From IMG/VR virus record IMGVR_UViG_3300044701_002822, positions 1 to 64,000 of that record: a stretch of 64,000 nucleotides of DNA; one strand, given 5' to 3'. Positions 1-64,000 of the stretch are shown piece after piece. The number at the start of each line of letters is the position of its first letter. Within the stretch, counting starts at the first letter, position 1. The stretch is from a virus. Below the pieces are notes generated by a model that saw only the letters and a list, made by a program, of their open reading frames with translations, was not told where the DNA came from and did no database searches. A program made the translations under genes and the position numbers.

Positions 1-594
1 ATTGTCCCAGTCACGTTCAAACCATTCAGGTACCATAACCATGTTGATAGTAACTTGAACATCGTGTTCTTGACATAGTATTAGTTTGTCTGCAAAGTCC
101 TGCATCTTTGCTGTTGTATCTAAATGCTCAGTATGCAAACTTGCTGTAATGCTTGCTCTGTGAAACGGCTTTGCATAATCTACGTATGTTTCAAACCATT
201 TCATAGGTCGAGAACAGTTTGATGTCATGTGTATGCTAGTATAATTGGTATTAGGCGTATCGTCTGCTAGATACTTTAGAATATCTAAGTAACCTGGATG
301 GAATGTAGGTTCACCTCCACTTAACGAAAAGTGGAAACTATTGAATCCATTGTCACGTGCTTGTCGTTTTATTTCGTCGATGGTTTTGAGACATAACTCT
401 GTAGGTCTATGATCTTTTTTGTCGGATCTTGCATATGGCCAACAGTAGCTACATCTGTAGTTGCAGAATCTGCCGAGGAGCCAAGATACAGTAAATATGT
501 CTCTATATAAGAGTGTCCGCTGTCCGACTTGAACAATTTCGTCAAACGGGATTTTGGTAAAATCATAGTTGCTCCATTTTAAATCTTCAGTCAT
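1..594 (-). CDS. Radical SAM protein (W-x-x-x-x-x-CxxxCxxC subfamily), truncated by the window edge
   Basis: Not in the ORF track. Manual translation from ATG at 594 gives MTEDLKWSNYDFTKIPF...VSWLLGRFCNYRCSYCWP...FSLSGGEPTFHP...MTSN...ITASLH, open to position 1. Confidence 0.9.
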   Translation of the reverse strand, partial: MTEDLKWSNYDFTKIPFDEIVQVGQRTLLYRDIFTVSWLLGRFCNYRCSYCWPYARSDKKDHRPTELCLKTIDEIKRQARDNGFNSFHFSLSGGEPTFHPGYLDILKYLADDTPNTNYTSIHMTSNCSRPMKWFETYVDYAKPFHRASITASLHTEHLDTTAKMQDFADKLILCQEHDVQVTINMVMVPEWFERDWDN

Positions 595-599
595 TTCTT

Positions 600-628
600 A
601 TTGTACTATATTTTTTTCTTTTTGTCAA
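600..628 (-). promoter_or_regulatory. sigma70-type promoter TTGACA-N17-TACAAT, 5 nt upstream of ATG 594 (leaderless)
   Basis: Reverse complement of tgtcaa (623-628) and attgta (600-605), with a 17-nt spacer. Confidence 0.75.
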
Positions 629-642
629 AATTAATTTTAAAT

Positions 643-1719
643 TTATATATCTACTTGTAAGTTTTGTTCTGCTTCTCTTTTTACTATGCCGCAGGTTCTA
701 ATACAACGAGGAATAACATTGCTACTAGTCCAACTTTTTAAAAGATCTTTAAAAAACTGATGTGCTAAAACTTGACTCCACGATTGTTCTTTTAAATTTA
801 GCTGGCCAATAGGATACTTTAATTCTGCGTGTGACATAGTTTTAAAAGTTTCGTATTGGTCGCTAATATAACAACATGGAAAAACTTCCATTCTACTATT
901 GATATACATTTTTTGAGATTCTCGGTATATACATTCAATTTTCCAATCGGTGTTTGGCAACGGTTTATCTGCATATCTGAAATCTTCTAATGTATTAAAA
1001 TCGTTTTTATGATCTGTCTTCACCTGTTGTAAAAATTCAGTCATCTCTTTTAGACTAGGATGTCTATATTCAGGATCTAGTGGCGGTTCTAAATAGTGCG
1101 TAACATTACCTTCTGCATCTAACACAGGATATGGATTAAATCTGTCAAATCTCGGTGTACGTCTAAATCTAAAATTATCTACTCCTAATTCTTTTGCAAG
1201 TGCTTTACTGCTTTCCATTTCATGTTCGTTATGTTTAAACACAAGAAAGTCCCACCGTGTTCTTACAGGACTATCACAAACAATCTTTAGATGCTTCAGT
1301 ATTTTGTTTACATCAGTGTTTTGCCTATAAAGATGATTTGTTTCAATTCCATCAATACCAAAAGTAATTCTATCTCCACTGTCAAGGATGTCAACAAAAC
1401 GTTTCCACCAACTTTCAGTTTTAAGACTGCCATTGGTAAACATTTCAATCTGAGCACCGGCATCTTTTGCTGCTTTTACTGCTTCAAACACATTTTTTGC
1501 TGCAATAGGATCGCCGTGAGTTCCACAAAAATAAACAAATTTTAAGTTAGGTAGGTCTCTGAATGCTTTAGAAACATCAGTTAAATTCCATTCGGCAAGA
1601 CCCCTTCCGGGATTAGCCAGACCTCCAAATTGATTTCTATCGCACATAGGACATGCAGCATTGCACTTGTTTGTAATTTCAACGTGCAACTCACGTATAC
1701 TATCAGGTTCTAAAAACAT
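643..1719 (-). CDS. Radical SAM protein (CxxxCPxC subfamily) with C-terminal Cys cluster
   Basis: EITNKCNAACPMC, FCGTHGDP, TNGS, FGIDG, and C-terminal C...PCCY...CIRTCG. Confidence 0.92.
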   Translation of the reverse strand: MFLEPDSIRELHVEITNKCNAACPMCDRNQFGGLANPGRGLAEWNLTDVSKAFRDLPNLKFVYFCGTHGDPIAAKNVFEAVKAAKDAGAQIEMFTNGSLKTESWWKRFVDILDSGDRITFGIDGIETNHLYRQNTDVNKILKHLKIVCDSPVRTRWDFLVFKHNEHEMESSKALAKELGVDNFRFRRTPRFDRFNPYPVLDAEGNVTHYLEPPLDPEYRHPSLKEMTEFLQQVKTDHKNDFNTLEDFRYADKPLPNTDWKIECIYRESQKMYINSRMEVFPCCYISDQYETFKTMSHAELKYPIGQLNLKEQSWSQVLAHQFFKDLLKSWTSSNVIPRCIRTCGIVKREAEQNLQVDI

Positions 1720-1751
1720 AAAACTACCTTATAATAAATATAGTGTATTTA
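1717..1751. promoter_or_regulatory. Bidirectional late-type promoter cassette TAAATA-N5-TATTTA plus leftward RBS
   Basis: TAAATA at 1735-1740 (+) and TATTTA at 1746-1751 (-) lie between divergent genes. A near-identical cassette is at 52615-52647. Confidence 0.65.
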
Positions 1752-1779: not shown

Positions 1780-3294
1780 ATGACAGATATTGTGTTTTTA
1801 ACACTGCCGCGACTGGAACTTAGGGCACCTATAACAGCCCCTGCAATACTAAAGGCCATGGTAGAACAGCATGGGTTTAGTGCATTTTGTTATGACTTGA
1901 ATTTAGATCTTTGGCATAGTATTGACACAGAAAAGCACGGACATGTTTGGTTTGATACTGACTTAACTTTTAGATACGAAGATAAGTTTGAAGAATTTTG
2001 GAATGAACATATCGAGCCATGTGTTCCAAAATGGCTAGCAACTATACAAAGTAAAAATCCTAAATGGATAGGCATAACAATTTTTAGTCAGCGTAGCAAA
2101 TGGGTTACAATCCGCATTTGTAAAATGTTTAGAGAAAAGTTACCAAATGTAAAGATTGTTGTAGGCGGACCTTTTGCCGAGTTCACTGGCCCTAGCTTGT
2201 ACAAAAATAATCTAACCGATGCATATGTTATCGGCGAAGGTGAAGAAGCTATTGTTAATATATTAAACGGAAACCTAAACGCACCCGGTATAAATGGTAT
2301 TCCGCCTAGTCAAATAAATGACTTAGATACAATTCCTATTCCCGACTATAGCGATTTTCCAATGGACAAATATCCGAGTACTTGGTTTGACCCTAGAATA
2401 AAGGACAAAACCAAGATGGGCACTGAATTTGTTTACATAACTGGCAGCCGCGGCTGTGTACGCAAATGTACTTTTTGTGATATTCAAAGCGTATGGCCAA
2501 AATTTAGGTATCGCAGTGGTAAAAGTGTTGCAGAAGAAATGCAAACACAAAACAATGCTTATGGTAGTAAAAGATTTTTGTTTACAGACAGTTTGCTTAA
2601 TGGTAGTGTAAAGCAACTAAAAGATATTTGTACTACACTTATTGATTATAAAGACAAAGGTACAATGTCGCCTGTTCTGTGGCAAGGACAGTTTATAGCA
2701 CGACCAGAACATCAGATGAAAGAAGATGTTTACAGGTTAATGTATGAAGCAGGATTAAGATTTGTAAGTATCGGTGTAGAAAGTGGAAGCGAAAAGATAC
2801 GTGACGATATGCGTAAAATGTTCAACGATGAAGCTATGGACTTTACTTTTCGCATGTGTGCAAAATATAAAATAGAAATGGCATGGTTATTGCTTGTAGG
2901 CTATCCTACCGAAACTGAAGAAGAGTTCCAAAAAACTCTAGACATGTTGGAAAAATATAATTGGATTAATCAACAAGGGCTAATACGTAGTGTTGCACTT
3001 GGGCCAACGCTAGATATTGTTCCAGGATCTCCTTTGTGGAATAAACAGAAAGAACTCGGAATCACTTGGGACCAGAACGATCATTGGATATATAAAGATA
3101 ATACACGAGAAGTTAGAATACGTAGGTGGCTAACACTCAAAGAAAAATGTTTAGAACTAAACTACCCTATTGTTGAAAAAGCTACCGATCATTTACTAGC
3201 AGAGTTAGAAAAAATTACAGCACAAAAACAACAAACTGTACATATTTATGATCATTACAATGAAGGTGCAGGAGCGATGGGGCCAAGCGTATGA
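1780..3294 (+). CDS. Cobalamin-binding radical SAM protein (class B methyltransferase-like)
   Basis: N-terminal B12-binding-like region (IVVGGP, GEGE), SRGCVRKCTFC, GVESGS, VGYPTETEE. Confidence 0.9.
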   Translation: MTDIVFLTLPRLELRAPITAPAILKAMVEQHGFSAFCYDLNLDLWHSIDTEKHGHVWFDTDLTFRYEDKFEEFWNEHIEPCVPKWLATIQSKNPKWIGITIFSQRSKWVTIRICKMFREKLPNVKIVVGGPFAEFTGPSLYKNNLTDAYVIGEGEEAIVNILNGNLNAPGINGIPPSQINDLDTIPIPDYSDFPMDKYPSTWFDPRIKDKTKMGTEFVYITGSRGCVRKCTFCDIQSVWPKFRYRSGKSVAEEMQTQNNAYGSKRFLFTDSLLNGSVKQLKDICTTLIDYKDKGTMSPVLWQGQFIARPEHQMKEDVYRLMYEAGLRFVSIGVESGSEKIRDDMRKMFNDEAMDFTFRMCAKYKIEMAWLLLVGYPTETEEEFQKTLDMLEKYNWINQQGLIRSVALGPTLDIVPGSPLWNKQKELGITWDQNDHWIYKDNTREVRIRRWLTLKEKCLELNYPIVEKATDHLLAELEKITAQKQQTVHIYDHYNEGAGAMGPSV

Positions 3295-3920: not shown

Positions 3921-4639
3921 TGAACCAATCTACAATAATATTAGAAAATCATTTTAATTCTGAAGATTTGGAATATCTCCGTAAATTGAAAGCGATATGC
4001 AAAGAAGATCCTAACTCAATTAGATCAAGATTGTCTTTACAAAAAAGAAGTAACAAACTATATGTATGCAGTAATAAAACTATTGTAAATCACAATGATA
4101 TAGCAAAATGGATAAACGAGCGTTTGCCGTTTGAAAACAAAGACGAATACGAATTTCAATCCATTAACTTTTACGAAATACAAGTTCCTTTCGGCATGCA
4201 TTCAGATACTAGTGCTGACCAAAAATATTTTTATCAAGGCATAATACCGTTAGGCGTGGATCCTGCTGACAAGGATGCTTATACTCTTATTTTCGACCAA
4301 ACATCCGAAGAGAATGTAGAATGGATTCATCCTATATACGAAAAACCAGATGATTATAAACCGTTTTTTAATAAACCTGTTAGAGATCCATATTATTTTG
4401 ATAACTGGAAACCAGATTATAAACTTTCAGACGAGGATTGCAAAAAATGGTTTGGCAATCATTGGAAATATTGGCAAACTGCCTACGAAGGATTTACTGT
4501 ACACACCGAATACAAGTGGAACATAGGCGATTTATTTTTGTTTGATAGCAGACATATGCACTGTGCTACCGCTCTCGAAGAGAAAGGTATTAATTCAAAA
4601 GAAGGATTGCTTTTCATCCTAAAAAAGAAAGATGTGTAA
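3920..4639 (+). CDS. Putative 2OG-Fe(II) oxygenase-like (DSBH) protein
   Basis: GMHSD (HxD) and WNIGDLFLFDSRHMH distal His, followed by Lys. Confidence 0.62.
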   Translation: MNQSTIILENHFNSEDLEYLRKLKAICKEDPNSIRSRLSLQKRSNKLYVCSNKTIVNHNDIAKWINERLPFENKDEYEFQSINFYEIQVPFGMHSDTSADQKYFYQGIIPLGVDPADKDAYTLIFDQTSEENVEWIHPIYEKPDDYKPFFNKPVRDPYYFDNWKPDYKLSDEDCKKWFGNHWKYWQTAYEGFTVHTEYKWNIGDLFLFDSRHMHCATALEEKGINSKEGLLFILKKKDV

Positions 4640-5466
4640 TGTTTAAACATTTAGATACGTTAACTTATATTACTAAATTAAATAGAACATATTCAACTGC
4701 TTCTGCAAATACAGGAGCAGGAGAATTATCAATAGTAAATTATTCCTATACAGATGTAGATAAAATTGAAATTGGTATACCATTAGGTGACAAACCTGTT
4801 GCAGTGTTTATATCCGGCGGGCCTGATAGTGCTATAACAACATATTTGGTAGTAAAAACAATCAAAGACTTAGGATTCAACAATCCTGTTTATCCGATTA
4901 CTACAGAGTTTATGGCAAGGCCGTATAATATAAGACATGCATGGAATGTATTAAATAAAATCGAAGAATTACTGGATTTTAAATTTGCACAGCATCTTAT
5001 ATTTCCTATGCCTAATCATGCATTAAAAATAAGCGACGAAGATAAAAAAGTAATAATGTCTAAAAATATAGACGAGTACTTTAATCGTTATCAAATTTAT
5101 ACATTGTTCAACGGATTAACTGCAAACCCACCAGATGATGCTATAGTGGATACAATTTATGCACAACGCCAAGCTGAACGTAATAGCGTTGATGCTGTAT
5201 TACAAAAACTAAAACAAAGTTATAATCAATATCCGTTGTTGTTTTCTCATAAACAAATAGCAGCATACTTTTTTGAAAAATTTGATTTACTAGAATCTCT
5301 ATTTCCATTAACAAGAAGTTGCGAAGCAGAACTCGAAGAATCACATTATTTTACTAAAACATGTTTCGAAATAAGACATGCTGAGCAGTTGTGTTGGTGG
5401 TGTCAAGAACGTAAATGGGGATTCAATCATTATCGTCCTGCTGATTTTATACAAAAGGTGAAATAA
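4639..5466 (+). CDS. QueC-like PP-loop ATP pyrophosphatase
   Basis: ISGGPDS PP-loop, TRSC, and a variant Zn motif C...CWWCQER. Confidence 0.75.
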   Translation: MFKHLDTLTYITKLNRTYSTASANTGAGELSIVNYSYTDVDKIEIGIPLGDKPVAVFISGGPDSAITTYLVVKTIKDLGFNNPVYPITTEFMARPYNIRHAWNVLNKIEELLDFKFAQHLIFPMPNHALKISDEDKKVIMSKNIDEYFNRYQIYTLFNGLTANPPDDAIVDTIYAQRQAERNSVDAVLQKLKQSYNQYPLLFSHKQIAAYFFEKFDLLESLFPLTRSCEAELEESHYFTKTCFEIRHAEQLCWWCQERKWGFNHYRPADFIQKVK

Positions 5467-6260
5467 TGCTTACAAGACAAATAGCAAATTCAAACGAAAC
5501 AGCTGAAATATACGCAGATATAGAAATCAAATTTACAGCCGACAGCGGATCTAGTACAATTGTTCCATTAGGAAAAGATTGGAACACAGTTGGCATACAA
5601 TTATCAGGCGGCTTAGACAGTGCTTTACTTTTATACCTAACTACAAAGGCTATACAAGAATCCGGATTTAATATTTGCATACAACCAATTAGTGTGTTTA
5701 TTCCTACTAAGGCAAAAAATATTGTTGCTACAGAAGCTATTATTAAAAAAGTTAAAGAATTAACTGGTGCCAATTTTATTAATGATGGATTAGTTTTCAA
5801 TATGTCGATTTCTGATACAAGCACTAATGATGGTAAAAAAGATAGATTTTTTGACTCTACTATTTTAAAACTGTTTGAAGATAGAGTAATAGATTTTGAA
5901 TATAACGGTAACACAAAAAATCCGCCGGAGCATATTAGAAAACACTTTCGTTATGATCAGTATAGACAAAAAAATAGAGACAATGCTGAATCTATATACA
6001 ATAATCCTTATGGTGCCAGTCCGCACTACAACATGGATAAAAAAGATATTGTAAATCTATATGTTAAACACAATCTTATAGAAGAACTAGCACCGTTAAC
6101 GCTTTCGTGTGACGAGGATGTCGATATAGTTTACGCAAACAAATTAAATGTACCATGCGGATCATGCTGGTGGTGTGAGGAACGCAAGTGGGGATTTAGT
6201 TCTAACAATGTAAAAGACCCTGCACCTATACTAACTTTTGAAGAATACAAGAATCTGTAA
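5466..6260 (+). CDS. QueC-like PP-loop ATP pyrophosphatase
   Basis: LSGGLDS, TLSC, CGSCWWCEER. Confidence 0.8.
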   Translation: MLTRQIANSNETAEIYADIEIKFTADSGSSTIVPLGKDWNTVGIQLSGGLDSALLLYLTTKAIQESGFNICIQPISVFIPTKAKNIVATEAIIKKVKELTGANFINDGLVFNMSISDTSTNDGKKDRFFDSTILKLFEDRVIDFEYNGNTKNPPEHIRKHFRYDQYRQKNRDNAESIYNNPYGASPHYNMDKKDIVNLYVKHNLIEELAPLTLSCDEDVDIVYANKLNVPCGSCWWCEERKWGFSSNNVKDPAPILTFEEYKNL

Positions 6261-6261
6261 T

Positions 6262-7443
6262 ATGGACATACCCAGTAAAACATTTTGCAGTATGGCATGG
6301 GATCATCAATTTATCGATCCTACAGGCAGAGTAAAACCGTGTTGTAGATTTGCAGAAAAATACAGGCCCAATGAGAACAATCTTAAAGAAAAAACTTTGA
6401 GCGAAGTTTTTTACGGGGGCTGGATGAATGATGTTCGCGATAAAATGATGCGTGGCGAACAAGTAAACGGGTGTATTCGTTGCTACCAAGAAGAAGCCGC
6501 TGGCAAACGCAGTCTGCGTGAACGCTATCACGATAGCAAGGAGTTACCGATTGATCAGTTAGTTGATTTAGATAATCCAAAGATTAGATGGATCGAACTT
6601 GCTATTAGCAATGACTGTAACTTAGCATGTCGCATGTGTGACAGTCGCTATTCTTGGAAATGGTTCAAAGAAGAACAAGCTATATTTGGCACTACTTATA
6701 ATACTGTTGAAAAAAGTAAAAGTGATATATCAAATATCTATCCATTTATAAACGATCTTGTACATATTAAATTCACTGGTGGAGAACCGTTGATGACCAA
6801 GGATCAATGGGCATTAGTGGATAAAATGTTAGCCGAACGTGATTGCAGTGATATACTTTTAAATTATAGCACCAATTGTACTATTATGCCCAAAGACAAC
6901 TGGATAAAAAAATGGAGTAAATTTAAACAGGTAGAATTTGCTTTAAGCTTTGATAGTTCAAATAAAGACGAAAGTGAGTATATACGTTGGCCAGCAAAGT
7001 ATGAAACAACAGAAGCTGTTACTAAAAGGTTTTTAGAACTTAAACAAAGTCATGGATTTCACGTGTTTTTACGCAGCACAATTAGTTTGTTAAACGTTTG
7101 GCATATGCCAGAAAGTATGCAATGGTGGGCAGAGCATGACCAAGGAGTGCAGATTATGAATCCTACGCACTTGACTTATCCGGAAATCCTTTGTGTTACT
7201 GTATTACCGGCACACATTAAAAAACGTGTTACAGAAAAGTTTGACAATTATATTTTAAATTCAAGTAACGAAAAAATAAACAAAAGTCTTGAATATATAA
7301 GAAACTTTATGAATAGCAAGGATGATAGTTACTTATTGCCGCAACTAAAAACTTATTTAGAGGGCACTGACAAATATAGAGAGCAAGATTTTTTTAAGTC
7401 TTATCCTCAATTTTTAGATCTATTTTTTCACTTAGATAGTTAA
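6262..7443 (+). CDS. Radical SAM protein with N-terminal twitch-like domain
   Basis: FCSMAW...PCC...CIRCYQEE; CNLACRMC; FTGGEP. The ORF track starts at 6238; ATG 6262 follows the upstream stop directly. Confidence 0.92.
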   Translation: MDIPSKTFCSMAWDHQFIDPTGRVKPCCRFAEKYRPNENNLKEKTLSEVFYGGWMNDVRDKMMRGEQVNGCIRCYQEEAAGKRSLRERYHDSKELPIDQLVDLDNPKIRWIELAISNDCNLACRMCDSRYSWKWFKEEQAIFGTTYNTVEKSKSDISNIYPFINDLVHIKFTGGEPLMTKDQWALVDKMLAERDCSDILLNYSTNCTIMPKDNWIKKWSKFKQVEFALSFDSSNKDESEYIRWPAKYETTEAVTKRFLELKQSHGFHVFLRSTISLLNVWHMPESMQWWAEHDQGVQIMNPTHLTYPEILCVTVLPAHIKKRVTEKFDNYILNSSNEKINKSLEYIRNFMNSKDDSYLLPQLKTYLEGTDKYREQDFFKSYPQFLDLFFHLDS

Positions 7444-8614
7444 AAAGTTCTGGAGTGACATCTTTAAAATGTATACCACGTTCAAGTGTAAAATAATTTA
7501 GTGCATCAACTGTTAAGGGTACTTTGTCAACTTTGGTTCCAATATGTTTTTTGAAATTGTTTAAATTAAAAATTACCTCATCTAAGTTTGCTATTACATC
7601 ATGTTTATCAGACATGTATTCAATACATTTGTCAATATAAACTAAAAACCTTTTGTCTAAGACATCAATAGATAATGCATCGGGTTGATATACAATGTTA
7701 GCACTTATGTAAACTCCATTTGTATTGTACTTTTTACACAAATCAATAAAAAATTTAAAATAAGATAATGTATCAACAATAGACACACAGTTTATAGACA
7801 TGTTTGTCGATATGGTAAAGCCTGCTGCAAACCATGTATTTAAATTATCAACATATTGTTTATAACTGCTTCCATGTCTTACATATTCGTAATTTTTTCC
7901 TGTGCTTTCTCCACTGACTGAGATGTACACATGTAGATTTTTATAAGTTTTTTTATAATCTCCGAGTTGCTTTATTATTTTTTGTAATAGATTAGTAGGA
8001 GTATTGCAATTTGTTTGCAGCCCTATTGTTAAACTTTTATCGTGGTTGGTATTCTTATAAAAGCTAGTAATACATAATTCTAAAAGATTTTTTTTATTAA
8101 CAGTAGTCAACATAGGCTCTCCTCCTAATAATACTATTTCAGTTATTTTATTATCAGGTTGTGTGTTTCCGACGCTAGTTATATAATCAAATATTTTTTC
8201 AGAATTATTATTTTTTATATTCGTGTTTTTATTTGAACAAGAAAAATTTGGGGGCGTGTGTTTTGTAGTTTTCAATTCTGCTAACCATTGACTGCTATAT
8301 TGTGCATTACAATAGATGCATTTACTATCACATGTATTATCAAAAAATAATTCTATTTTTTTATAGATATCAAGTTTGTAAAATTTATAGAATTCGTTTC
8401 CAAGTTGTCTCCAACTTTTGGCATTTGCCTTTTCAGTATCCCAACAGATATTGCATTCACGTATACGTCTACCTTTAGTTAAAGCTTTTTCTGCTTTTTT
8501 TAGTTCTTTGCTGCCTATCTGATTTATATGAGCCATTTTACAGCAAAGAGACTCTGTATTTTGTAAGTTGTCAAAAATTCTTTCAATGGAAGACCTTTTG
8601 CAGAAATTACTCAT
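7394..8614 (-). CDS. Divergent radical SAM protein with N-terminal Cys domain
   Basis: LCC...CNICW, CDSKCIYC, SSQW, LGGEP. Start taken at ATG 8614 (track gives 8683). Confidence 0.85.
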   Translation of the reverse strand: MSNFCKRSSIERIFDNLQNTESLCCKMAHINQIGSKELKKAEKALTKGRRIRECNICWDTEKANAKSWRQLGNEFYKFYKLDIYKKIELFFDNTCDSKCIYCNAQYSSQWLAELKTTKHTPPNFSCSNKNTNIKNNNSEKIFDYITSVGNTQPDNKITEIVLLGGEPMLTTVNKKNLLELCITSFYKNTNHDKSLTIGLQTNCNTPTNLLQKIIKQLGDYKKTYKNLHVYISVSGESTGKNYEYVRHGSSYKQYVDNLNTWFAAGFTISTNMSINCVSIVDTLSYFKFFIDLCKKYNTNGVYISANIVYQPDALSIDVLDKRFLVYIDKCIEYMSDKHDVIANLDEVIFNLNNFKKHIGTKVDKVPLTVDALNYFTLERGIHFKDVTPELFNYLSEKIDLKIEDKT

Positions 8615-52647: not shown

Positions 52648-52661
52648 AAGTTGGAGAAACT

Positions 52662-54733: not shown

Positions 54734-55359
54734 ATTATCTCAAAAGGCCATTCGCCCGAATTTACTTGTAACAATAATGCATACACTTGTTTCATATCAA
54801 CTAAACCGTCTGTATTATATTGTTCAAATCTCCAAATATCCATTTTACCAAGAATAGGTGTTAACATGTTCATGGGTAAAAAACTATTTGCATTAGACAC
54901 ACATCCATAAAAATCATGTACTCTTATATTGTTATTTAGGTCAACATAGGTGGTATGAGGATAGTAATTGATTTTTAAAACAGTTTTGCTTAATTCAGCA
55001 AGTATGTTTTTGATTTCGTTGTGATGTTCGTCAATTGTTTTTTTATCTTCTAGAATATGATTTAAACTGGTATCATACCATTTAAAAAATACACGTCTAC
55101 TAGTTTTGTCAATGTCAATTAAATCGGGTGCAAATGTTTTGTTTTGAAAATGTTCAAGCCATCTTATTTCATTATCGAAATAAAATTGAGCTATATTGTC
55201 TGTGTATAAAGTTCTATCAAAAAAGTATCTTTTATCAATATTAAAATCCATGCAAAAAACATTTCGGTCAGGACTAATACGTGGAACATAAACAAGGTTA
55301 GCACGTAATTTACCACCTTGTTTATATTTGTAAAAAATGTCCCAGGACGAAATGTCCAT
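54730..55359 (-). CDS. Protein-kinase-like fold protein with atypical catalytic loop
   Basis: NLVY.P.IS.D...FC, NEIRWL, APDLIDID, LKINYYPH, VHDFYG. Confidence 0.5.
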   Translation of the reverse strand: MDISSWDIFYKYKQGGKLRANLVYVPRISPDRNVFCMDFNIDKRYFFDRTLYTDNIAQFYFDNEIRWLEHFQNKTFAPDLIDIDKTSRRVFFKWYDTSLNHILEDKKTIDEHHNEIKNILAELSKTVLKINYYPHTTYVDLNNNIRVHDFYGCVSNANSFLPMNMLTPILGKMDIWRFEQYNTDGLVDMKQVYALLLQVNSGEWPFEII

Positions 55360-57485: not shown

Positions 57486-58449
57486 GTATTCTCTCTTTGG
57501 GTATAATAATGTCTGTTCCGCAATGACAGTGTTCTTTATTACATATAACAGGTTTTAAATCAAATGTCAAGTTTTCATCTAATATGTTGCCGTGGCGATT
57601 TCCTACACCGCAACTTGCACTGCTAATTTGTCCAATAGGATTTATAAAAAGTGCATCATCTACATAACATTTCCACCCACTAAAAAAGTTTTGTCTGTCA
57701 GCAATAATTTTATTACTGTTTGTGGATTCTATTACTCCATTGTCATAATGACTAATACTAATAGCACTGTTTTCTCTATAAGGTTTTGGTAAACGCATCA
57801 TAGTTTCAAATCTTGCGTTTTCTAGAAACTCTACTTTTGCAGGATCATCATATTTCCACGGTCCAGCATTCACACTCATTTCATCAAACAGAGGTGTCCA
57901 TTCTAAGTTATAGTTAGGCACTTCGTTACGTACACGTTCACCAAACTCGGCTACTTCCCAAAAACGTTCTTCGTGCATCAACATCTTGGTGCAAAGATAA
58001 TCTACCTTATCGCAAAGAAAACGTGCATTTTCAATATAACGATCTTTTTTACTAAATTCAACATGAAAACTTGCAACAATGTCATCAAATAACTTGTAGT
58101 GTTCTTCCCAATAACGCAATGGTCGTGACAGGTTTGTATTAACTGCCACTGTTAAACTATTTCCTAGCCAACCTTTTAGATGCTGTGTTAATGGAATAAA
58201 GTTTTCCCAATGCGTAGGCTCGCCGCCACTGTAAAATATTTTAAAATGTTTGTAGCCACGATCTTTGTATTGTTGGAAAATATTAGTAACATTTCTAATA
58301 TAAACATCTAAGTTACTGTTGTTACGACTGTCACCAGACCAGTTTCCTGGGTTACAATAGCTGCACTGAAAATTGCAAAAATTGTTTACTTGCCAAGTAA
58401 TAGTTGCATACGGTTCTGCAATAGGAGTAATTTTTACTAACTTAGACAT
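57475..58449 (-). CDS. Radical SAM protein (W-x-x-x-x-x-CxxxCxxC subfamily)
   Basis: WQVNNFCNFQCSYC, SGGEP, SFH, FSGWKC, CNKEHCHC. Confidence 0.93.
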   Translation of the reverse strand: MSKLVKITPIAEPYATITWQVNNFCNFQCSYCNPGNWSGDSRNNSNLDVYIRNVTNIFQQYKDRGYKHFKIFYSGGEPTHWENFIPLTQHLKGWLGNSLTVAVNTNLSRPLRYWEEHYKLFDDIVASFHVEFSKKDRYIENARFLCDKVDYLCTKMLMHEERFWEVAEFGERVRNEVPNYNLEWTPLFDEMSVNAGPWKYDDPAKVEFLENARFETMMRLPKPYRENSAISISHYDNGVIESTNSNKIIADRQNFFSGWKCYVDDALFINPIGQISSASCGVGNRHGNILDENLTFDLKPVICNKEHCHCGTDIIIPKERIHGL

Positions 58450-59731
58450 ACTTTCTTAACCACTCCATTTCTGGAAACACATTCCAAAAATCTTCTTGCC
58501 GATGTTGATCTAACCCATGGTTTTTTTCGAAAAACTGTTTTAATTTTTCTTGGTCTAGTTTTCCTGCATTCATAAATTGAATGACACTATCAATTTTGCC
58601 AAGTACGTCCTTAACTACACCTGGCTTTGCAATAATACGATCTTTGATCTTATCATATGCCCATGCTTTGTAGTCAATATACTTTGCTCGTAATTCTATT
58701 TTTACATCTTCAGGAATATTATCAATACGCATAAAATCTGGTCCAGTAAGCACATTAAGTCTACAGTTTTCAATATCTACCAATCCACGTTCTACCCAAT
58801 CCATATGAAAGTCTGGCCAATTCCAAGCGTTATACAAACTGATAGTAGGCGTAAGTTCAAAATAAACGTGCGGCAATTGTTCGAGCATTTCGATTCTGTT
58901 GCGTTCTATTTGCTGCCAATCAGTGCCGTGACGTATAAATTCAGCTCTTGCACCATTGGCATCAAGGCTTGCACTAACTTGTATGTCTTGGAAACTTTTC
59001 CAATAGTGGATGATACTTTTCTTTTTAAAACGTAAATTGCTAAAGTTTGTAGTATAACGCAATCTTACATCTGTTTTGCCTGCTGCAATCCATTCATCAA
59101 GTATTTTGTAGTGTTCGTTTGTAATCAAAGGTTCGCCGCCGGCCCAATACACTTCTTCTACATCCGGCAAATATTTTTGCAGTTGATCCCAATAATTCTG
59201 ATGTTTAGCAATATTAACAATGATGCTACCGTCGTTACGTAATATGTTAGCAACTTCATGCTCGCCATATAGTTCGCCGTGTTCTTGAGCATGTAAACTA
59301 CTAAGTTCAGGACCACAAGTTCTGCACTTCATGTTACAGATATTGCTGAATCTAATGTCCATGTATGCCATACGCATATCTGATTCAGGAATACTACCAT
59401 CAGATGCAGTCTTTTCAACCAAGTCAAAATGTTTATCACCAAACCACTGATTGTGATTTTTACGCAGTGTCCAAATATATGTGCTGTCTTCTAATTCGTA
59501 GCAACGTCTGCAACAGTCGAGTTTTTTACCTTCCAGCATAGCAAGACGTAGTTCTTTGTAGCGTTCACTGTTCCATACTTGCTCGATAGTGCCTTCTTTA
59601 ACATTACCAAAAGGTTGATCGCTATCTGCAATACAGCAAGGCATTGCACGACCATCTGGCCATACGTGCATATGAATCCAAGGTAAAATACAAAAGGCTT
59701 TGTTTTCGTTTAGTAATATATCTTTAAGCAT
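58442..59731 (-). CDS. Radical SAM protein with N-terminal twitch-like domain
   Basis: FCILPWIH...PCC...CRRC; CNMKCRTC; AGGEP. Confidence 0.93.
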   Translation of the reverse strand: MLKDILLNENKAFCILPWIHMHVWPDGRAMPCCIADSDQPFGNVKEGTIEQVWNSERYKELRLAMLEGKKLDCCRRCYELEDSTYIWTLRKNHNQWFGDKHFDLVEKTASDGSIPESDMRMAYMDIRFSNICNMKCRTCGPELSSLHAQEHGELYGEHEVANILRNDGSIIVNIAKHQNYWDQLQKYLPDVEEVYWAGGEPLITNEHYKILDEWIAAGKTDVRLRYTTNFSNLRFKKKSIIHYWKSFQDIQVSASLDANGARAEFIRHGTDWQQIERNRIEMLEQLPHVYFELTPTISLYNAWNWPDFHMDWVERGLVDIENCRLNVLTGPDFMRIDNIPEDVKIELRAKYIDYKAWAYDKIKDRIIAKPGVVKDVLGKIDSVIQFMNAGKLDQEKLKQFFEKNHGLDQHRQEDFWNVFPEMEWLRKYV

Positions 59732-60950
59732 CTAGCATCTCTTTTAATTCTGGAAATACACTTACAAAACTTTCATTGCGGATTTCGTCTCGTCTCTTTA
59801 CATGATGTTGAAAATCAGTTTTATATTCGTTCCACTGATCTTCTTCATTGGTAAAATTAATAGCATCATTTACATGTACTCCTTGATACCAATCATTAGT
59901 AATCATAAAATCGTAAACTTTTTTTAGTTTATCCGATCCTACTTTTTTAATCGACGACGGTAAAATTTTAGAACAGTAGTATGTAGGAGTTAATGCACGA
60001 TAGATACTAATCATATCTTTTTGTCTTAACAAGCAGTTTTCAATCATGTAAAAAAGAAACTCGTCCATTGTAGCATAATTAAATGCACTCAAAACAGTAT
60101 TAAACTGAAAGTCAATATAGTCAACATCTCTGATACTTTTTAAGTTCTGTTCTACTACGCCCCAGTCAGTTCCGTGCCGCAAATACTCAGCACGTTCCCC
60201 GTAATGATCGAGACTTGCTGAGATTTCTACACGTTTAAACTTACTCCACATGTTCATTATGTCGTATTTTTTATATTTAAAATTACTCATGTTAGTGTTA
60301 TAACGAAGTGTAATACGTTTGTTTGCACCTGTGCGAATCATTTCTTCTAGAATAACATAATGCTCGTCTGTGATAAGAGGCTCACCGCCTGCAAAGTATG
60401 CAAGATCCATATGACACACTTGCGATTTAATTTCTTCTAATAAGGCACCTGTACTATCGGCATGTTGGATAATTCTATAATCAGGAGGCGTCCAATCGTG
60501 TTGCTTCATTTCTTGAGCCCACTGACTGCTGAATTCGCTACCGCATGTACGACACTTAAAGTTACAGATATTACTAAATCTCACATCAAAATATTTCATT
60601 TTGAATTCGGGTACAGTGCCATCCGATTGTGTAGTTGTTACAACTTCGTCAAAGTCTTTACCAAAATGTTCAATGCTATATTTGCGAAAACTAAACGGCG
60701 ATGTTTCTTCATGTTTATAACAGTAGTCGCATATGCTGCTTTTTTTACCTGCAAGCATGTCTAAACGGAGTTGACGTATCTTATCTCCATTGAATACTTC
60801 TTTTAGACTTTTTCCCTTGATGTTGTCAAACGGTGCAGTATAGTCTGAACTACAGCACGGATAAACATTACCCAACGGTGTAACATTCATATGTACCCAA
60901 GGAAACATACAAAATGTTTTACTTTCGTTTAATAACTTTTCTTTATCCAT
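59724..60950 (-). CDS. Radical SAM protein with N-terminal twitch-like domain
   Basis: FCMFPWVH...PCC...CDYC; CNFKCRTC; AGGEP. Tandem paralogue of 58442. Confidence 0.93.
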   Translation of the reverse strand: MDKEKLLNESKTFCMFPWVHMNVTPLGNVYPCCSSDYTAPFDNIKGKSLKEVFNGDKIRQLRLDMLAGKKSSICDYCYKHEETSPFSFRKYSIEHFGKDFDEVVTTTQSDGTVPEFKMKYFDVRFSNICNFKCRTCGSEFSSQWAQEMKQHDWTPPDYRIIQHADSTGALLEEIKSQVCHMDLAYFAGGEPLITDEHYVILEEMIRTGANKRITLRYNTNMSNFKYKKYDIMNMWSKFKRVEISASLDHYGERAEYLRHGTDWGVVEQNLKSIRDVDYIDFQFNTVLSAFNYATMDEFLFYMIENCLLRQKDMISIYRALTPTYYCSKILPSSIKKVGSDKLKKVYDFMITNDWYQGVHVNDAINFTNEEDQWNEYKTDFQHHVKRRDEIRNESFVSVFPELKEMLDA

Positions 60951-62325
60951 TTGCTGCATCCTTACACAGTTGGAAGAAATCTGACATTTCTGGAAATGCA
61001 GATTCAAAATCTAGACTACGTCTACGATCTTGCTCTTTAAAAAAGTTCCAAAAATCTTTACGTCCTTCGAGTATGCGTTGAGGAGTATACTCTGTGGTTT
61101 TCATATAGTCAACTACACGTCTAAACTTTTCATATTCCAAATTACTAAAATGATGCTTGCTACCTTCTTTTACATGATACTTGATAAAGTCCAAATGACT
61201 TTCCATATACGGCATGTAATTTTCCTTAGGAAGTATATTCATATCATATTGTAGAGGCTCTTTGAGATAAGGAGTATCAAAATGAATACGTTGCCAACGT
61301 CCGCTGTCAACATCATTATATTTGCTTCTCCATTCCAACATTTTTTCTAGCAAACTTTGAAATGTTGTAACACTGAACAAATTAAATGTAATCATAAATG
61401 TTACAGGTGCGGTAGTATTGAGCATGAAATAATCTAAATTACGTTCAAATACTTCAAGGTCAAGTCCATCACGAATATATTCAGCACGTGGTCCCCAGGT
61501 GTCAACACTGGTAAACAACTTAAACTGCTTGATTTTATTCTGTGTCAGCAAACTGTTTACACTGTCGGTAAACTTTTCAAGTTGCTTTTCTTTGCCGCCA
61601 AGGTTGCTGTTAACATTCAACTCAAGATGCGGCTTTGGTTCTTTTTCTAGTTCTTCAAACAGTCGGTACGTGCTTTTTTGAATAGTAGGCTCGCCGCCTG
61701 TAATACGCAGGATGTTTAGTGTCTTGCTAACTTCCGGCCACCATTTCCACCAAGCACGTACATAAGGATTCGAATCTTCTTCGTAGATACGGAACCAGTC
61801 AATGTCATTGCGATGATTGCGAACATTGGTGTAAGGACCGTGTTGACGTATTTCGTTGTAGTAACGACTGCTAGCCTTGGGATGGCAATACCCGCAACGG
61901 AAATTACACTCGTTGCCAAATGAAATTTCAATGTACTCAGGATTTACGTTAAAGTCCCAGGGATTAAATTTTACTTCCTGCAAACGTTCTTCATTGTAGA
62001 TACTGCCACTGCGAATGTGACGATCACTGATGTAATCTTCACCCATGTTTTCAATATTCCAGCAGTACTGACAACCAACACACTGCTTGCCTTCTAACAT
62101 CTCTTTGCGTTCTTGCTTTTTTTGTTTTGTGTTATGCAACGCACTAGGATTGGTTAGTAGCTCATCTACATCAATTTGATGCGGAGCAGGGTGATAACAA
62201 CTGTGTGTTTCACCTGTTTGCAGATAGATTGTTGTATGATACCATTTAGCAAAACAAAATGTTGGACTAAAATGACGTTTTGTAATACCGTTAATTGTTT
62301 TTAAACGATCTTCATTCAATGACAT
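60943..62325 (-). CDS. Radical SAM protein with N-terminal twitch-like domain (His variant)
   Basis: FCFAKW...HSCYHP...CQYCW; CNFRCGYC; TGGEP. Confidence 0.93.
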   Translation of the reverse strand: MSLNEDRLKTINGITKRHFSPTFCFAKWYHTTIYLQTGETHSCYHPAPHQIDVDELLTNPSALHNTKQKKQERKEMLEGKQCVGCQYCWNIENMGEDYISDRHIRSGSIYNEERLQEVKFNPWDFNVNPEYIEISFGNECNFRCGYCHPKASSRYYNEIRQHGPYTNVRNHRNDIDWFRIYEEDSNPYVRAWWKWWPEVSKTLNILRITGGEPTIQKSTYRLFEELEKEPKPHLELNVNSNLGGKEKQLEKFTDSVNSLLTQNKIKQFKLFTSVDTWGPRAEYIRDGLDLEVFERNLDYFMLNTTAPVTFMITFNLFSVTTFQSLLEKMLEWRSKYNDVDSGRWQRIHFDTPYLKEPLQYDMNILPKENYMPYMESHLDFIKYHVKEGSKHHFSNLEYEKFRRVVDYMKTTEYTPQRILEGRKDFWNFFKEQDRRRSLDFESAFPEMSDFFQLCKDAANG

Positions 62326-63254
62326 TAATTTTCACGATCTATAAATTGTTGTTGTGCGGTTCTTGCAGGATTTTGATATACTGTTTTAAAAAAGAGGCTG
62401 CCGCCAGCATCCAAAGGCGTGATACCGATTGGAAGATCTAGCTCTGCCTTTAACTTATCGCCGTAATCTTCGATTGCTTCTATCAAGTTTTCTTCGTTAA
62501 CAGTAAGCTCTAGATTTTTCCACATGTTATTTAGATAATCGAAATCACGTACATTTACAAAGTCCCAATCAGTAAGCATTGTCATGTATAGACCTTGTCT
62601 AGCACCATAGATTGCCCACAGACCATTTTCTACATCTGCACCAACCATCAACCAAATGTAAAGTCTATGAAGATTTTTCCAATGATTTTTTTGGAATTCA
62701 TTGATAGTTACTCGTAAACCGCGATCCAATGCCATTTTAACACCTTCTCTAAATCCAGCACGCCATGCCTGATGCGGTGTAGCGTTGTTGTAGATTTCAC
62801 TATAACAACTGTTCATTTGAATGTATTCAATGTCCCAACAAAAGTCTACTTGTGCGTGTTGATTATTAGGATCTGCGTTTTCGTGTGTACGCATATTTAA
62901 AACATACTCTTTTGGCCAGCATTTTAGGCCGCCGTTTCCGTACATTAATCCATTAATTGTATTGCGGGCTGTCCAACTAATAACACACTTTTCTAGATCT
63001 TTGTTTTCATCGAAATCGAATTCTTTAGTAAGGAATTCTGCATTGACAATATTATCGCCATCAACTGTAATAAATCTGTCAGTTTCAGAAAGTCTAGCAC
63101 AAGCCTTGTGTGCAGCATCACTGCCTTTGACACCATGTACACGTTTTGCCCATGGAATTTTTTTACACAAATTTGCGTAATTTTCTTCTGCGTTTGGTTC
63201 ATCATAGCTTAGATAGATAATATCGTAATCTAAAACTTTGAACTTGTTGCTCAT
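62325..63254 (-). CDS. GT-A-like glycosyltransferase (single-domain paralogue of the 969-aa protein)
   Basis: YDIIYLSYDEPNA, RVHGVKG...AH, VDGDN (DxD), YGNGGLK, AWRAGFRE. Confidence 0.65.
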   Translation of the reverse strand: MSNKFKVLDYDIIYLSYDEPNAEENYANLCKKIPWAKRVHGVKGSDAAHKACARLSETDRFITVDGDNIVNAEFLTKEFDFDENKDLEKCVISWTARNTINGLMYGNGGLKCWPKEYVLNMRTHENADPNNQHAQVDFCWDIEYIQMNSCYSEIYNNATPHQAWRAGFREGVKMALDRGLRVTINEFQKNHWKNLHRLYIWLMVGADVENGLWAIYGARQGLYMTMLTDWDFVNVRDFDYLNNMWKNLELTVNEENLIEAIEDYGDKLKAELDLPIGITPLDAGGSLFFKTVYQNPARTAQQQFIDREN

Positions 63255-63838
63255 TTGGTTACCTCGTGTAGATAAGTTTCTAATCTCTTTGTAGTATATA
63301 CACTTAATGCAGTTGGGTCAAGTTCTATTTCGGATTCAAATTCAAATTCAACATAGTCGTTGACTAATAATTCAACAATACGCATAGTAAAAAATTTTTC
63401 CAACTGATGAGGATCATTATAACGGGTAATACTAAAAGTTAACGTTTTATCAAGATGAATTTTTTTTGTTTTAAAGTTTTCTTTAATTGCTTCATCTAAA
63501 CAAAATTGCCATTTTTTTCCTTTTATGTTTTGTATTACAACCAAGTCTGATCTATCAACCTTGTTTCTGGTAATTTTATGTACATCGACGTTTACATTAA
63601 GATTAATTTTTTCATTGTTAAACATATGTTTTAAAACATACGTTTTTTTAATTGTATCAAAGATTACTTGATAGTGCCAGAATTGTTCTTTTCCTGTAAG
63701 AATATTTTCAATTTCAAACAATTCAACTTGAATAAAATTTCCAGGTTCGGTGTTTGTATTCGAAACACTTATTAAATTTCCATTATCATCAAAGTAAACA
63801 TACTTTTGTGTAGGAATTTTTACAATAATATCATTCAT
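63251..63838 (-). CDS. Hypothetical protein
   Basis: 195-aa ORF, coupled to its neighbours. Confidence 0.75.
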   Translation of the reverse strand: MNDIIVKIPTQKYVYFDDNGNLISVSNTNTEPGNFIQVELFEIENILTGKEQFWHYQVIFDTIKKTYVLKHMFNNEKINLNVNVDVHKITRNKVDRSDLVVIQNIKGKKWQFCLDEAIKENFKTKKIHLDKTLTFSITRYNDPHQLEKFFTMRIVELLVNDYVEFEFESEIELDPTALSVYTTKRLETYLHEVTK

Positions 63839-63998
63839 AGTGTGTTTCCAAATAATTTTCGTAAATTGAAATTATTTCATCTGACATAAAATCTTTTTCT
63901 GTATAATGAAAAATTCCATTTTGTTTATAGTTGCCAATTTTTAAATTTAATTGCTTATCTAAGTATACGCCGACTTTGTCTTGCCACCGCTCAGTAAC
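63831..63998 (-). CDS. C-terminal end of a gene entering from the right edge
   Basis: Manual translation VTERWQDKVGVYLDKQLNLKIGNYKQNGIFHYTEKDFMSDEIISIYENYLETHYE*; overlaps the next start codon. Confidence 0.7.
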   Translation of the reverse strand, partial: VTERWQDKVGVYLDKQLNLKIGNYKQNGIFHYTEKDFMSDEIISIYENYLETHYE

Positions 63999-64000
63999 AT

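Follow-up and report, generated by a model that had tools for sequence, protein, structure and literature searches.

The window analysed here, bases 1-64000 of a single 76,827-base IMG/VR virus record (IMGVR_UViG_3300044701_002822) of uncultured, marine origin, is occupied by a gene island that encodes 25 radical S-adenosylmethionine (SAM) enzymes together with glycosyltransferase-like and other tailoring enzymes. We read this island as a late cytoplasmic pathway that would build or edit a variable sugar decoration, probably on virion proteins such as fibres, and we give this reading about an even chance; the virion target specifically is held less firmly than the sugar-based product. A sugar decoration is favoured because sugar enzymes can be recognised in the island, because a cellular counterpart lies amid glycosyltransferase genes, and because a minimal version in a cultured phage consists mostly of glycosyltransferase-like genes. 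Action in the cytoplasm on a soluble acceptor is favoured because no membrane segment, flippase, polymerase or initiating transferase was found among the island proteins, and a virion target because the island adjoins fibre genes on the same strand, probably under the same promoters, with virion-gene adjacency in three lineages. The initial annotation, made from the sequence alone, had proposed heavy chemical decoration of a macromolecule made late in infection; the gene content fits a glycan or virion form of that proposal, whose target we infer. Genes are called g01-g76, following the numbering of the whole-contig open reading frame (ORF) list.

Radical SAM enzymes of the island

The window contains exactly 25 ORFs with a CxxxCxxC motif, as the initial annotation had counted, and these make up about 40% of its ORFs (25 in 64 kb; 64 non-nested ORFs of at least 90 aa). 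All 25 places were matched by PF04055 (Radical_SAM), 21 of them above the gathering score of 29.5 bits and the remaining four at 18-28 bits (E 9e-8 to 1e-4), and in an alignment of the 25 sequences C151, C155 and C158 are invariant. The set comprises ten members of NF033640 (N_Twi_rSAM), one sub-threshold relative of that family (g09), three B12-binding enzymes, six short enzymes of a 'family B', four short enzymes that carry a C-terminal Cys domain (g02 and its paralogues g11, g13 and g43), and the singleton g17, whose counterpart was absent from the related loci compared. SPASM/twitch domains occur in at least nine of the radical SAM enzymes of the window.

The ten full NF033640 members scored 226-408 bits against a cut-off of 170 bits, the 408 bits belonging to g12; g09 reached 139 bits, and the other radical SAM enzymes match the profile in the core alone. 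In the N_Twi enzymes a Cys-rich domain precedes the core (C12, C31, C95 and C98 invariant and C30 nearly so, ahead of C151/C155/C158), and this N-terminal part gives a weak alignment to the BtrN twitch domain (E 5e-4). NF033640 is a catalogued family, here present in 10-11 copies in one phage locus. Since the family has no characterised member, membership gives no chemistry, and the nearest solved structures match at superfamily level only.

PF02310 (B12-binding) is present in three of the 25 enzymes. It was assigned to g03, g20 and g60, which form a single paralogue family, by their length, the late position of CxxxCxxC and their matches to B12 families in NCBIfam. The best equivalog score in NCBIfam was that of g20 on KedN5 (NF033712), at 210 bits against a cut-off of 700, and the best scores of g03 and g60 were 104-116 bits against a cut-off of 282. 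The weak best matches of these B12 enzymes are C- and P-methyltransferases, C-methyltransferases of ribosomally synthesised peptides with post-translational modifications (RiPPs), and AprD4-like and KedN5-like enzymes. None of the 25 reached the cut-off of a characterised equivalog (KedN5, PhpK, RiPP C-methyltransferases and others).

Phage identity and late expression

The viral assignment of the parent contig in the initial annotation held up. The contig is part of a jumbo phage with T4-type late transcription and not of a cellular chromosome, because fibre and baseplate genes lie beside the island and because a sister record, G001, carries further virion genes, a gp55-type sigma factor and a T4 gene order. 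CheckV put the completeness of the present record at 21%, which implies a genome of about 350 kb; the window has a G+C content of about 34%, a coding density of about 100% and no tRNA. The island is about 66 kb long. It had been described as running off both window edges: on the left it is cut by the contig end, where one or two further genes are expected judging from G001, and on the right it continues past the window but ends on the contig at about 65,846. Fibre-like genes start at 65.9 kb, and fibre PHROGs and a tail collar domain are found at 66-73 kb of the contig. The 12.8 kb past the window encode two further glycosyltransferase-like proteins (GT8-like motifs occur in g67 and g68), the Ser/Thr/Gly-rich fibre-like proteins g70 and g71, three paralogous fibre proteins (g72-g74), one with the Pfam phage tail collar domain, the baseplate-like g75 (203 aa; 52% identity to a protein of Sinorhizobium phage Phosso, 51% to Atu_ph07 and about 43% to GAP32/Rak2-like jumbo phages), and g76, the C-terminal 946 aa of a giant protein.

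The sister record G001 (330 kb, 93% complete, 33 tRNAs) has the same gene order in this region. Its fibre genes are followed by the gene for a 4,603-aa protein and then by those for a baseplate wedge (phrog_10646, E 5e-299), for a hub/lysozyme and for further proteins of the virion. The gp55-like sigma factor named in the initial annotation as a mark of such a contig was found in G001, outside the present fragment: the ORF at 126095-126919 matches phrog_12791 (E 6e-77), phrog_234 (E 1.5e-21) and, by phmmer, T4 gp55 (E 1.5e-8), and after it, in the order known from T4, come gp47/gp46-like SbcD/SbcC genes. Relatives are genomes of 306-330 kb, nearest to Phosso, Atu_ph07 and GAP32-like jumbo phages, and the phage is distantly related to Atu_ph07 and Rak2/GAP32-like phages. 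The giant protein of G001 is encoded at G001:C1:100969-114780, between the fibre genes and the baseplate wedge, and its C-terminal part is the counterpart of g76. We also observed that g72-g74 (contig 67940-73351) have a common N-terminal region (phrog_14394/15511) and divergent C-terminal parts, and this combination suggests several alternative receptor-binding fibres for one attachment site.

The initial annotation had equated TATAAATA with the late promoter of T4 gp55. By count this motif is not over-represented, with six copies in the window against 11.6 expected, and the part of the claim that stood is the link to gp55: a gp55-type sigma factor exists in G001, and late-promoter-like cores precede island operons. 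Five of the seven exact copies of TATAAATA on the contig are located at divergent gene junctions, which amount to 1.3% of the sequence. Nine of the 11 ATAAATA cores on the contig lie 6-40 nt upstream of a same-strand gene start, or just inside a start that is probably mis-called. Such cores precede g03, g19, g43, g44, g53, g54 and g57 in the island, as well as the fibre-like g71 and the baseplate-like g75. Among the 7-mers enriched between the genes of G001, ATAAATA ranks first, with 47 of its 89 copies in 6% of the genome. Genes g58-g69 are on one strand, directly downstream of the fibre genes. From the ATAAATA positions and the gp55-type sigma factor, the island is likely to be co-expressed late with the structural genes. 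The intergenic regions 1720-1779 and 52618-52661, before g03 and g57, share a longer motif, AAACTACCTTATAA(T)AAATA. The intergenic DNA of G001 is also enriched 4-6 fold in GTTGACA and TGTCAAC, which look like sigma-70 -35 elements of early promoters.

A minimal island in Ralstonia phage RsoM2USA

Among cultured phages, homologues of g12 were found in four records, including that of the Ralstonia jumbo phage RsoM2USA (MG752970). Its ORF346-355 encode a fibre N-terminus protein, g69-, g68- and g67-like proteins and a 184-aa ORF, followed by a g65-like GT-A protein (49% identity), the g64-like N_Twi radical SAM enzyme ORF349 (36%), a GT-A protein like the C-terminal part of g18, g18C (44%), and a g15-like methyltransferase (30%). 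The order g69-g68-g67-(g66)-g65-g64 is thus common to the contig and RsoM2USA, and the minimal version of the island consists of four glycosyltransferase-like genes, one radical SAM gene and one methyltransferase gene. The adjoining ORF356, ORF359 and ORF361 were identified as virion proteins by mass spectrometry, in a study that mentions neither radical SAM nor the ORF346-355 cluster (PMC8504454). The mini-island resembles the present island in its gene order, in its 30-49% identity and in its place beside virion genes confirmed by mass spectrometry, but it carries a single radical SAM gene, against 25 here, and lacks the accessory cassettes, and its genes are annotated as hypothetical.

This gene order points to an ancestral unit that would have lain beside the fibre genes and consisted of four glycosyltransferase-like genes with a single radical SAM gene and a single methyltransferase gene. 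In the present contig the two halves of the unit lie about 45 kb apart, with the cassettes between them. Adjacency to fibre or virion genes is seen in the present contig, in G001 and in RsoM2USA, which are three separate lineages.

Related clusters in bacterial chromosomes

In a scan of one genome per prokaryotic species, relatives of the island were found almost only in Bdellovibrionota. Several Bdellovibrionota loci hold 10-14 radical SAM genes within 20 kb, and orthologues of g01, g02, g03, g07, g08, g10-g13, g15 and g18C/g65 are clustered there at 37-69% identity with their order partly kept (64-68% for g01, which is 92% identical to its G001 orthologue, 64-69% for g03 and 54-60% for g11). 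NF033640 is present in 44 of the 201 Bdellovibrionota genomes sampled against none of 14 reference genomes, and five genomes with such clusters have 9-19 NF033640 genes each. The view of the system as phage-specific therefore had to be given up, as synteny with its core was seen in chromosomal clusters of Bdellovibrionota. We considered whether these loci are mis-binned phage contigs and rejected this for the main ones, in which rpoB is on the same 349.5-kb contig (one genome) or the same complete 2.9-Mb chromosome (another).

The Bdellovibrionota clusters are uncharacterised, as is the phage island, and they differ from it in being cellular, in having GT2, GT-C and membrane proteins that the phage island lacks, and in having no fibre genes within 10 kb. 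Where the cluster lies on a complete Bacteriovoracaceae chromosome, it includes four GT2 genes along with a PMT_2-type GT-C gene and a flavin amine oxidase gene. In a quick tree, the phage g12 proteins form one clade (support 99) within an unresolved polytomy with g12-like proteins of Bdellovibrionota, and phage g10 is nested among g10-like proteins of Bdellovibrionota. Because each phage paralogue has its own cellular orthologue, the paralogues appear to be older than the split between phage and cell, and they would have moved in blocks without expansion in the phage. The common cluster had suggested a Bdellovibrionota host, an idea that lost weight once the core was seen in a Ralstonia phage as well.

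Four further, short contigs, L162 (NHDJ01000025.1), L137 (NZGL01000008.1), L108 (JBDNIA010000282.1) and L112 (CANEUJ010000032.1), either have homologues of the fibre genes or, in the g12 tree, group with the phage clade or beside it. They were deposited in metagenome-assembled genomes (MAGs) labelled Verrucomicrobia, Gammaproteobacteria, Crocinitomicaceae and Neisseriaceae, and they probably belong to phages of this lineage and were binned with bacteria.

Conserved core and exchangeable cassettes

Homologous islands, which the initial annotation had pointed to as a check, were found in IMG/VR, and the island is intact and conserved. At least 104 relatives of g12 occur there at 69-88% identity, some on contigs of 306 and 330 kb, more than 2000 homologues were found in metagenomes, many from Tara Oceans, and five sister records have 11-23 radical SAM genes each. 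Compared with G001, g01-g18 and g64-g76 are collinear and the middle is largely replaced, and gene content differs among relatives whose core is 70-88% identical. Across 80 related IMG/VR loci, g12-g13(-g14)-g15 and a g65-type GT-A gene are near-universal and their neighbours variable, with g12 found in 80, g13 in 79 and g14 in 63 loci. The small g14 (13488-13712; 74 aa), between the methyltransferase gene g15 and the radical SAM gene g13, is phage-specific, and it was not found in the Bdellovibrionota cellular loci compared.

The variable middle is organised in cassettes. Cassette B keeps its order in 13 IMG/VR contigs at 39-93% identity and cassette C in about 30 IMG/VR contigs, so that conserved order extends over tens of contigs at about 40-93% amino-acid identity. 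Taken as a whole, the island's cassettes return with their gene order kept on well over 100 viral contigs. Because gene order is retained at such divergence, the cassettes appear to be under functional constraint and the island to be a modular, selected set, of which this contig is an unusually full example.

Sugar enzymes and other proteins

The glycosyltransferase-like proteins of the island are of three fold types. The initial annotation had listed about six such genes; g65 and the g18 C-terminus are GT-A-like by predicted fold, and g25, g50, g52 and g57 are GT10-like at the level of motifs or weak matches. The structural model supports g65 as a predicted GT-A glycosyltransferase-like protein. 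D65 and D67 are invariant in its family, in an alignment that includes the g18 C-terminus (36% identity to g65 over 215 aa). The g65 model has a pLDDT of 86, and its top Foldseek match is the PBCV-1 capsid glycosyltransferase A64R (E 2e-4), followed by SunS/ThuS, RmlT and WrtF. VIA-align placed it on B4GALNT1 (Z 9.6, root-mean-square deviation 3.1, 140-142 residues aligned), and the top 50 VIA-align matches are mostly GT-A glycosyltransferases, the remainder having the same nucleotide-binding fold; mimivirus R699 is also among the fold matches. At the sequence level g65 matched no glycosyltransferase family. The two methyltransferases listed earlier, g15 and g49, are supported by predicted fold. 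The AlphaFold model of g15 has a C-domain pLDDT mostly of 86-98 and its Foldseek matches of probability 1.0 include numerous O-, C- and N-methyltransferases; the gene is conserved across the phages, Bdellovibrionota and RsoM2USA. Profile searches of the PDB with g65, g15 and the HxD..H families gave no matches, and those with the kinase-like family gave only non-significant Bud32/kinase matches. Protein Atlas searches with the N-terminal 740 aa of g18 and with g45 returned viral hypothetical proteins only.

With regard to sugar enzymes, g51 was confirmed as a nucleoside-diphosphate (NDP)-sugar epimerase/dehydratase, and g53, listed earlier as an aminotransferase, is DegT-like and short, at 206 aa. 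The amidinotransferase assignment of g55 was borne out, as the protein is StrB1-like (E 1.9e-62): residues 6-321 align to 1BWD (StrB1; 214 bits, full length), and HsvA, AGAT and SxtG are also matched. Tight coupling of g53 to g55 was seen in 51 of 55 loci. Between them g54 is an optional insert, found in 22 of 55 related loci on the strand opposite to the coupled pair and with its own TATAAATA box. We considered whether g53 and g55 are a split DegT gene broken by g54, and rejected it because g55 is a complete amidinotransferase and g54 is optional.

The amidinotransferase raises the alternative of a diffusible, aminoglycoside- or aminocyclitol-like pseudo-oligosaccharide, made during infection, that might be directed at rival phages or nearby cells or serve to manipulate the host. 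Aminoglycoside pathways (StrB1, BtrN, GenK/AprD4) have in common with the island an amidinotransferase, a DegT-type protein, twitch and B12 radical SAM enzymes, and kinase-like and short-chain dehydrogenase/reductase (SDR)-like proteins, here with g55 closest to the streptomycin enzyme StrB1 and paired with its DegT-like partner, a BtrN-like twitch domain and AprD4-/KedN5-like B12 enzymes; nor would such a product need a scaffold synthase. Beyond StrB1, however, the likeness does not go further than the superfamily, the Pfam and membrane searches of the island yielded no cyclitol synthase, resistance gene or exporter, the amidinotransferase cassette is accessory and lies outside the conserved core, and late co-expression with fibres leaves little time for a secreted agent. 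We consider this alternative very unlikely.

The remaining labels of the initial annotation fared unevenly. Of its roughly 11 HxD...H oxygenases, only g33 and g44 gained Pfam support, and g24/g34/g35 are recognised at motif level; the two SDRs (g30/g31) are recognised by the SDR motif, and the three kinase-like proteins (g27/g36/g59) and the SGNH-like proteins (g56/g58; DUF6071) by motifs or weak matches. Its three QueC-like ATPases are indeed PP-loop ATPases (g06, g07 and g38), which are QueC-like at superfamily level only. They have an invariant SGGxDS and a C-terminal Cys cluster, their profile matches are ThiI, AsnB, TtuA, NadE and LarE, and the match to the QueC C-terminus is weak and far under the QueC cut-off. 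These enzymes may be of the type that amidates carboxylates. It was also observed that g33 (31418-32296) is a fusion of a cold-shock (CSD) nucleic-acid-binding domain to a prolyl-hydroxylase-type 2-oxoglutarate (2OG)-Fe(II) oxygenase, which recurs in 13 IMG/VR contigs at 53-63% identity, and that g44 and g45 (40448-42413), separate here, match single fused proteins of 651-808 aa in the Bdellovibrionota loci L143, L172 and L111 and in L112.

Hypermodification of the phage DNA, in which glycosylated or otherwise decorated bases would serve to evade restriction, has to be weighed against these results. Known systems of phage DNA hypermodification use glycosyltransferases and 2OG oxygenases, the cold-shock domain of g33 is of a nucleic-acid-binding type, and QueC-like PP-loop proteins are present; their likeness to QueC, however, is confined to the C-terminal Cys motif. 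No TGT/DpdA (PF01702) was found in the four sister records G001-G004, one of them 93% complete, whereas the control genomes matched in 14 of 14 cases, and a 7-deazaguanine role of the QueC-like genes was rejected on this ground. A ThyA-like hydroxymethylase (PF00303) had no match in G001, G002 and G004, and G003 has one full-length match at 342 bits; TET/JBP (PF12851) had no matches, in a search that lacked a positive control. Moreover, the Bdellovibrionota homologues sit with GT2 and GT-C genes. DNA hypermodification is highly improbable in our judgement.

Table 1. Features of the island in the window, with promoter-like motifs in place.
Feature	Position	Strand	Description
g01	1..594	-	Radical SAM, short 'family B', truncated by contig start; PF04055 57 bits
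g02	643..1719	-	Short radical SAM, N-terminal CxxxCxxC; PF04055 40.7 bits; paralogues g11, g13, g43
ATAAATA core	1734..1740	+	Upstream of g03, inside motif AAACTACCTTATAA(T)AAATA
g03	1780..3294	+	B12-binding radical SAM, class B-like; PF04055 60 bits
g06, g07	4639..6260	+	PP-loop ATP pyrophosphatases, QueC-like in layout only
g08	6238..7443	+	N_Twi radical SAM; NF033640 307 bits
g09	7394..8683	-	N_Twi-like radical SAM; NF033640 139 bits (sub-cut-off); PF04055 32.7 bits
g10	8607..9947	-	N_Twi radical SAM; NF033640 362 bits
g11	9937..10998	-	Short radical SAM; PF04055 25.8 bits, E 4.6e-7
g12, g13, g14	10998..13712	-	Conserved core: N_Twi radical SAM (g12), short radical SAM with C-terminal Cys domain (g13), 74-aa protein (g14)
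g15	13699..14625	-	Class I SAM-dependent methyltransferase (predicted); paralogue g49 at 45766-46377
g17	15320..16291	-	Singleton radical SAM; PF04055 50.7 bits
g18	16276..19185	-	969 aa; C-terminal GT-A-like domain, g65 paralogue
GATAAATA	19231..19237	+	Late-promoter-like, 19 nt upstream of g19
g20	21060..22973	-	B12-binding radical SAM, KedN5-like (sub-cut-off); PF04055 50.7 bits
Cassette B, g23-g45	24815..42413		Radical SAM g23, g28, g39 (N_Twi), g41, g42 (family B), g43 (short); GT10-like g25; kinase-like g27/g36; SDR-like g30/g31; HxD..H g24/g34/g35; PP-loop g38; CSD+2OG oxygenase g33; Asp/Asn-hydroxylase-like g44 with partner g45
Two divergent TATAAATA boxes	40441..40469		Between g43 (-) and g44 (+)
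g46, g47	42364..44387	-	Radical SAM 'family B'; PF04055 31 and 45.7 bits
Cassette C, g48-g63	44384..61007		Radical SAM g48, g62, g63 (N_Twi), g60 (B12), g61 (family B); methyltransferase g49; GT10-like g50/g52/g57; g51, g53, g54, g55; DUF6071/SGNH-like g56/g58; kinase-like g59
g51	47489-48400		NDP-sugar epimerase/dehydratase
g53	49486-50106		Short DegT-like protein
TATAAATA	49498..49505	+	Upstream of likely true g53 start
g54	50075-50893	-	Optional insert between g53 and g55
g55	50914-51888		Amidinotransferase
TATAAATA	50919..50926	-	26 nt upstream of g54
TATAAATA	52629..52636	+	26 nt upstream of g57; same extended motif as at g03
g64	60943..62325	-	N_Twi radical SAM, HSCYHP subtype, fibre-proximal core; NF033640 303 bits
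g65	62325..63254	-	GT-A-fold glycosyltransferase-like (predicted), invariant DGD (DxD) motif
g66 and start of g67	63251..64000	-	Fibre-proximal end; g67 is a GT8-like DxD protein truncated by window end

Discussion

No Pfam match to families of nonribosomal peptide synthetases or polyketide synthases, transporters, peptidases or regulators was obtained among the island ORFs, which bears out the absences reported in the initial annotation, and no scaffold synthase would be expected if the product is built of sugars. The initiating (phosphoglycosyl) transferase, flippase, polymerase and ABC exporter of O-antigen and capsule clusters likewise had no Pfam match in the island, and none of its ORFs has a predicted membrane segment; as a control, the same script detected a GT-C protein with seven transmembrane segments and a protein with six in a cellular cluster. 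These absences bear on a further alternative, in which altered precursors or short glycans are placed by the lipid-carrier or export machinery of the host on lipopolysaccharide (LPS), capsule or surface proteins. Such remodelling of the host envelope could block superinfection or keep progeny from sticking to debris. The same has been proposed for host recognition clusters of pelagimyophages with glycosyltransferases and radical SAM genes (PMC7029224), the hypervariable gene content resembles O-antigen loci, and the GT-C and other membrane proteins of the Bdellovibrionota cluster imply a surface product in cells. The phage island itself, however, encodes neither a membrane protein nor a flippase, a polymerase or an initiating transferase, late-type promoters common with the fibre genes suit virion assembly better than early surface conversion, and the core also occurs in a Ralstonia phage, beyond possible phages of the bacteria that own the cellular cluster. 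We regard envelope remodelling as unlikely.

Alternatively, the radical SAM enzymes could act on virion proteins directly, in the manner of RiPP maturation, by C-methylation, epimerisation, cross-linking or hydroxylation, with the glycosyltransferases as a side activity. The SPASM/twitch domains in at least nine enzymes, the weak best matches of the B12 enzymes to RiPP C-methyltransferases, the Asp/Asn beta-hydroxylase-like g44 and prolyl-hydroxylase-type g33, and the neighbouring Ser/Thr/Gly-rich fibre-like g70 and g71 all fit this proposal. On the other hand, Pfam searches of the ORFs found no PqqD/RiPP recognition element (RRE) domain, leader-type small ORF, leader peptidase or exporter, and the lone conserved small ORF, g14, is phage-specific. 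The island thus lacks the usual marks of RiPP maturation, and a non-canonical protein substrate may still be compatible with it. In addition, no peptide-maturase equivalog cut-off was reached, the minimal island has four glycosyltransferase-like genes for its single radical SAM gene, and the cellular cluster sits among glycosyltransferases. Direct protein chemistry is quite unlikely on this balance.

For the favoured sugar decoration, the following scheme can be proposed. The island would probably be transcribed from gp55-type late promoters, the same as those for the fibre genes. Of its enzymes, all of them soluble, some would make or edit sugar building blocks, namely g51, the g53 and g55 pair, and the SDR-like, kinase-like, PP-loop and 2OG oxygenase proteins. 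About eight glycosyltransferase-like proteins, the two SAM methyltransferases and the 25 radical SAM enzymes would assemble and edit the decoration, with C-methylation, oxidation, amination and amidination as candidate edits. The result would be a strain-variable, heavily edited decoration of oligosaccharide type, assembled in the cytoplasm late in infection and most probably placed on virion surface proteins such as fibres. The island itself appears to have grown by addition of cassettes to a small fibre-adjacent core (GT-A, GT8-like, one N_Twi radical SAM and one methyltransferase), part of which is common to the chromosomal glycan-type clusters of Bdellovibrionota.

Several points weigh against this pathway. 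No acceptor, sugar-activating nucleotidyltransferase or product was identified. A family assignment is missing for most of the 39 non-radical-SAM ORFs in the window (Pfam for all, NCBIfam for ten), several of the glycosyltransferase, kinase and oxygenase labels rest on motifs or weak matches, and the fold match of the g65 model is moderate (Z 9.6, TM-score about 0.3). The best-known roles of Twitch/SPASM radical SAM enzymes lie in the maturation of peptides and cofactors, and to our knowledge 25 radical SAM enzymes is far beyond any sugar pathway. Hypervariable host-recognition regions, too, typically adjoin fibre genes, and a role in altering the host surface has been suggested for their genes (PMC7029224).

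Virus-encoded glycosylation of virions is known from chloroviruses (PBCV-1 A64R), from the fibril clusters of mimivirus and from mycobacteriophages with glycosylated virions. As is proposed for the island, these systems use the virus's own cytoplasmic sugar enzymes and glycosyltransferases for structural proteins, and g65 matches A64R and R699 in fold, but they are not known to use radical SAM enzymes on this scale. The host recognition cluster of pelagimyophages and cyanomyophages is the closest case described so far, being a large, hypervariable, fibre-adjacent region of marine T4-related phages with glycosyltransferases, LPS-type sugar genes, an Asp/Asn hydroxylase and 'cassettes related to radical SAM proteins' (PMC7029224). 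The island resembles it as a hypervariable enzyme-rich region adjoining tail-fibre genes. However, those phages have genomes of about 150-250 kb with clusters of 34-45 kb on average and few radical SAM genes (PMC7029224), whereas the present lineage is related to Atu_ph07 and Rak2, has a genome of about 350 kb with 25 radical SAM genes in about 66 kb, and is not a T4-like pelagimyophage or cyanomyophage. The island is accordingly of the fibre-adjacent glycan/host-recognition type, taken to an extreme by radical SAM chemistry. Our literature searches brought up no account of the island, nor any of the counterpart in Bdellovibrionota or the genes in RsoM2USA; in the searchable literature, radical SAM cassettes receive passing mention for pelagimyophage host-recognition clusters only (PMC7029224).

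In conclusion, we have described a radical SAM island of an ocean jumbo phage lineage, with more than 100 IMG/VR contigs and more than 2000 metagenome homologues. As a broader and rather doubtful proposal, jumbo phages and predatory Bdellovibrionota may share an undescribed glycan chemistry, in which an expanded family of N_Twi enzymes edits sugars or the sugar-protein linkage at unactivated carbons to give a combinatorial coat on the structures with which phage and predator touch their host or prey cells, and the phage pathway would have been acquired in blocks from Bdellovibrionota, possibly the host. The homology connects the biology of phages with that of predatory bacteria, and if Bdellovibrionota are the hosts, these would be the first jumbo phages of predatory bacteria. 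The mini-island of the cultured phage RsoM2USA makes the question accessible at the bench. If a radically edited glycan is indeed borne by the virion, phage-host recognition and the surface chemistry of phages would gain a further layer, and a first function would be at hand for NF033640, a catalogued but unstudied family.

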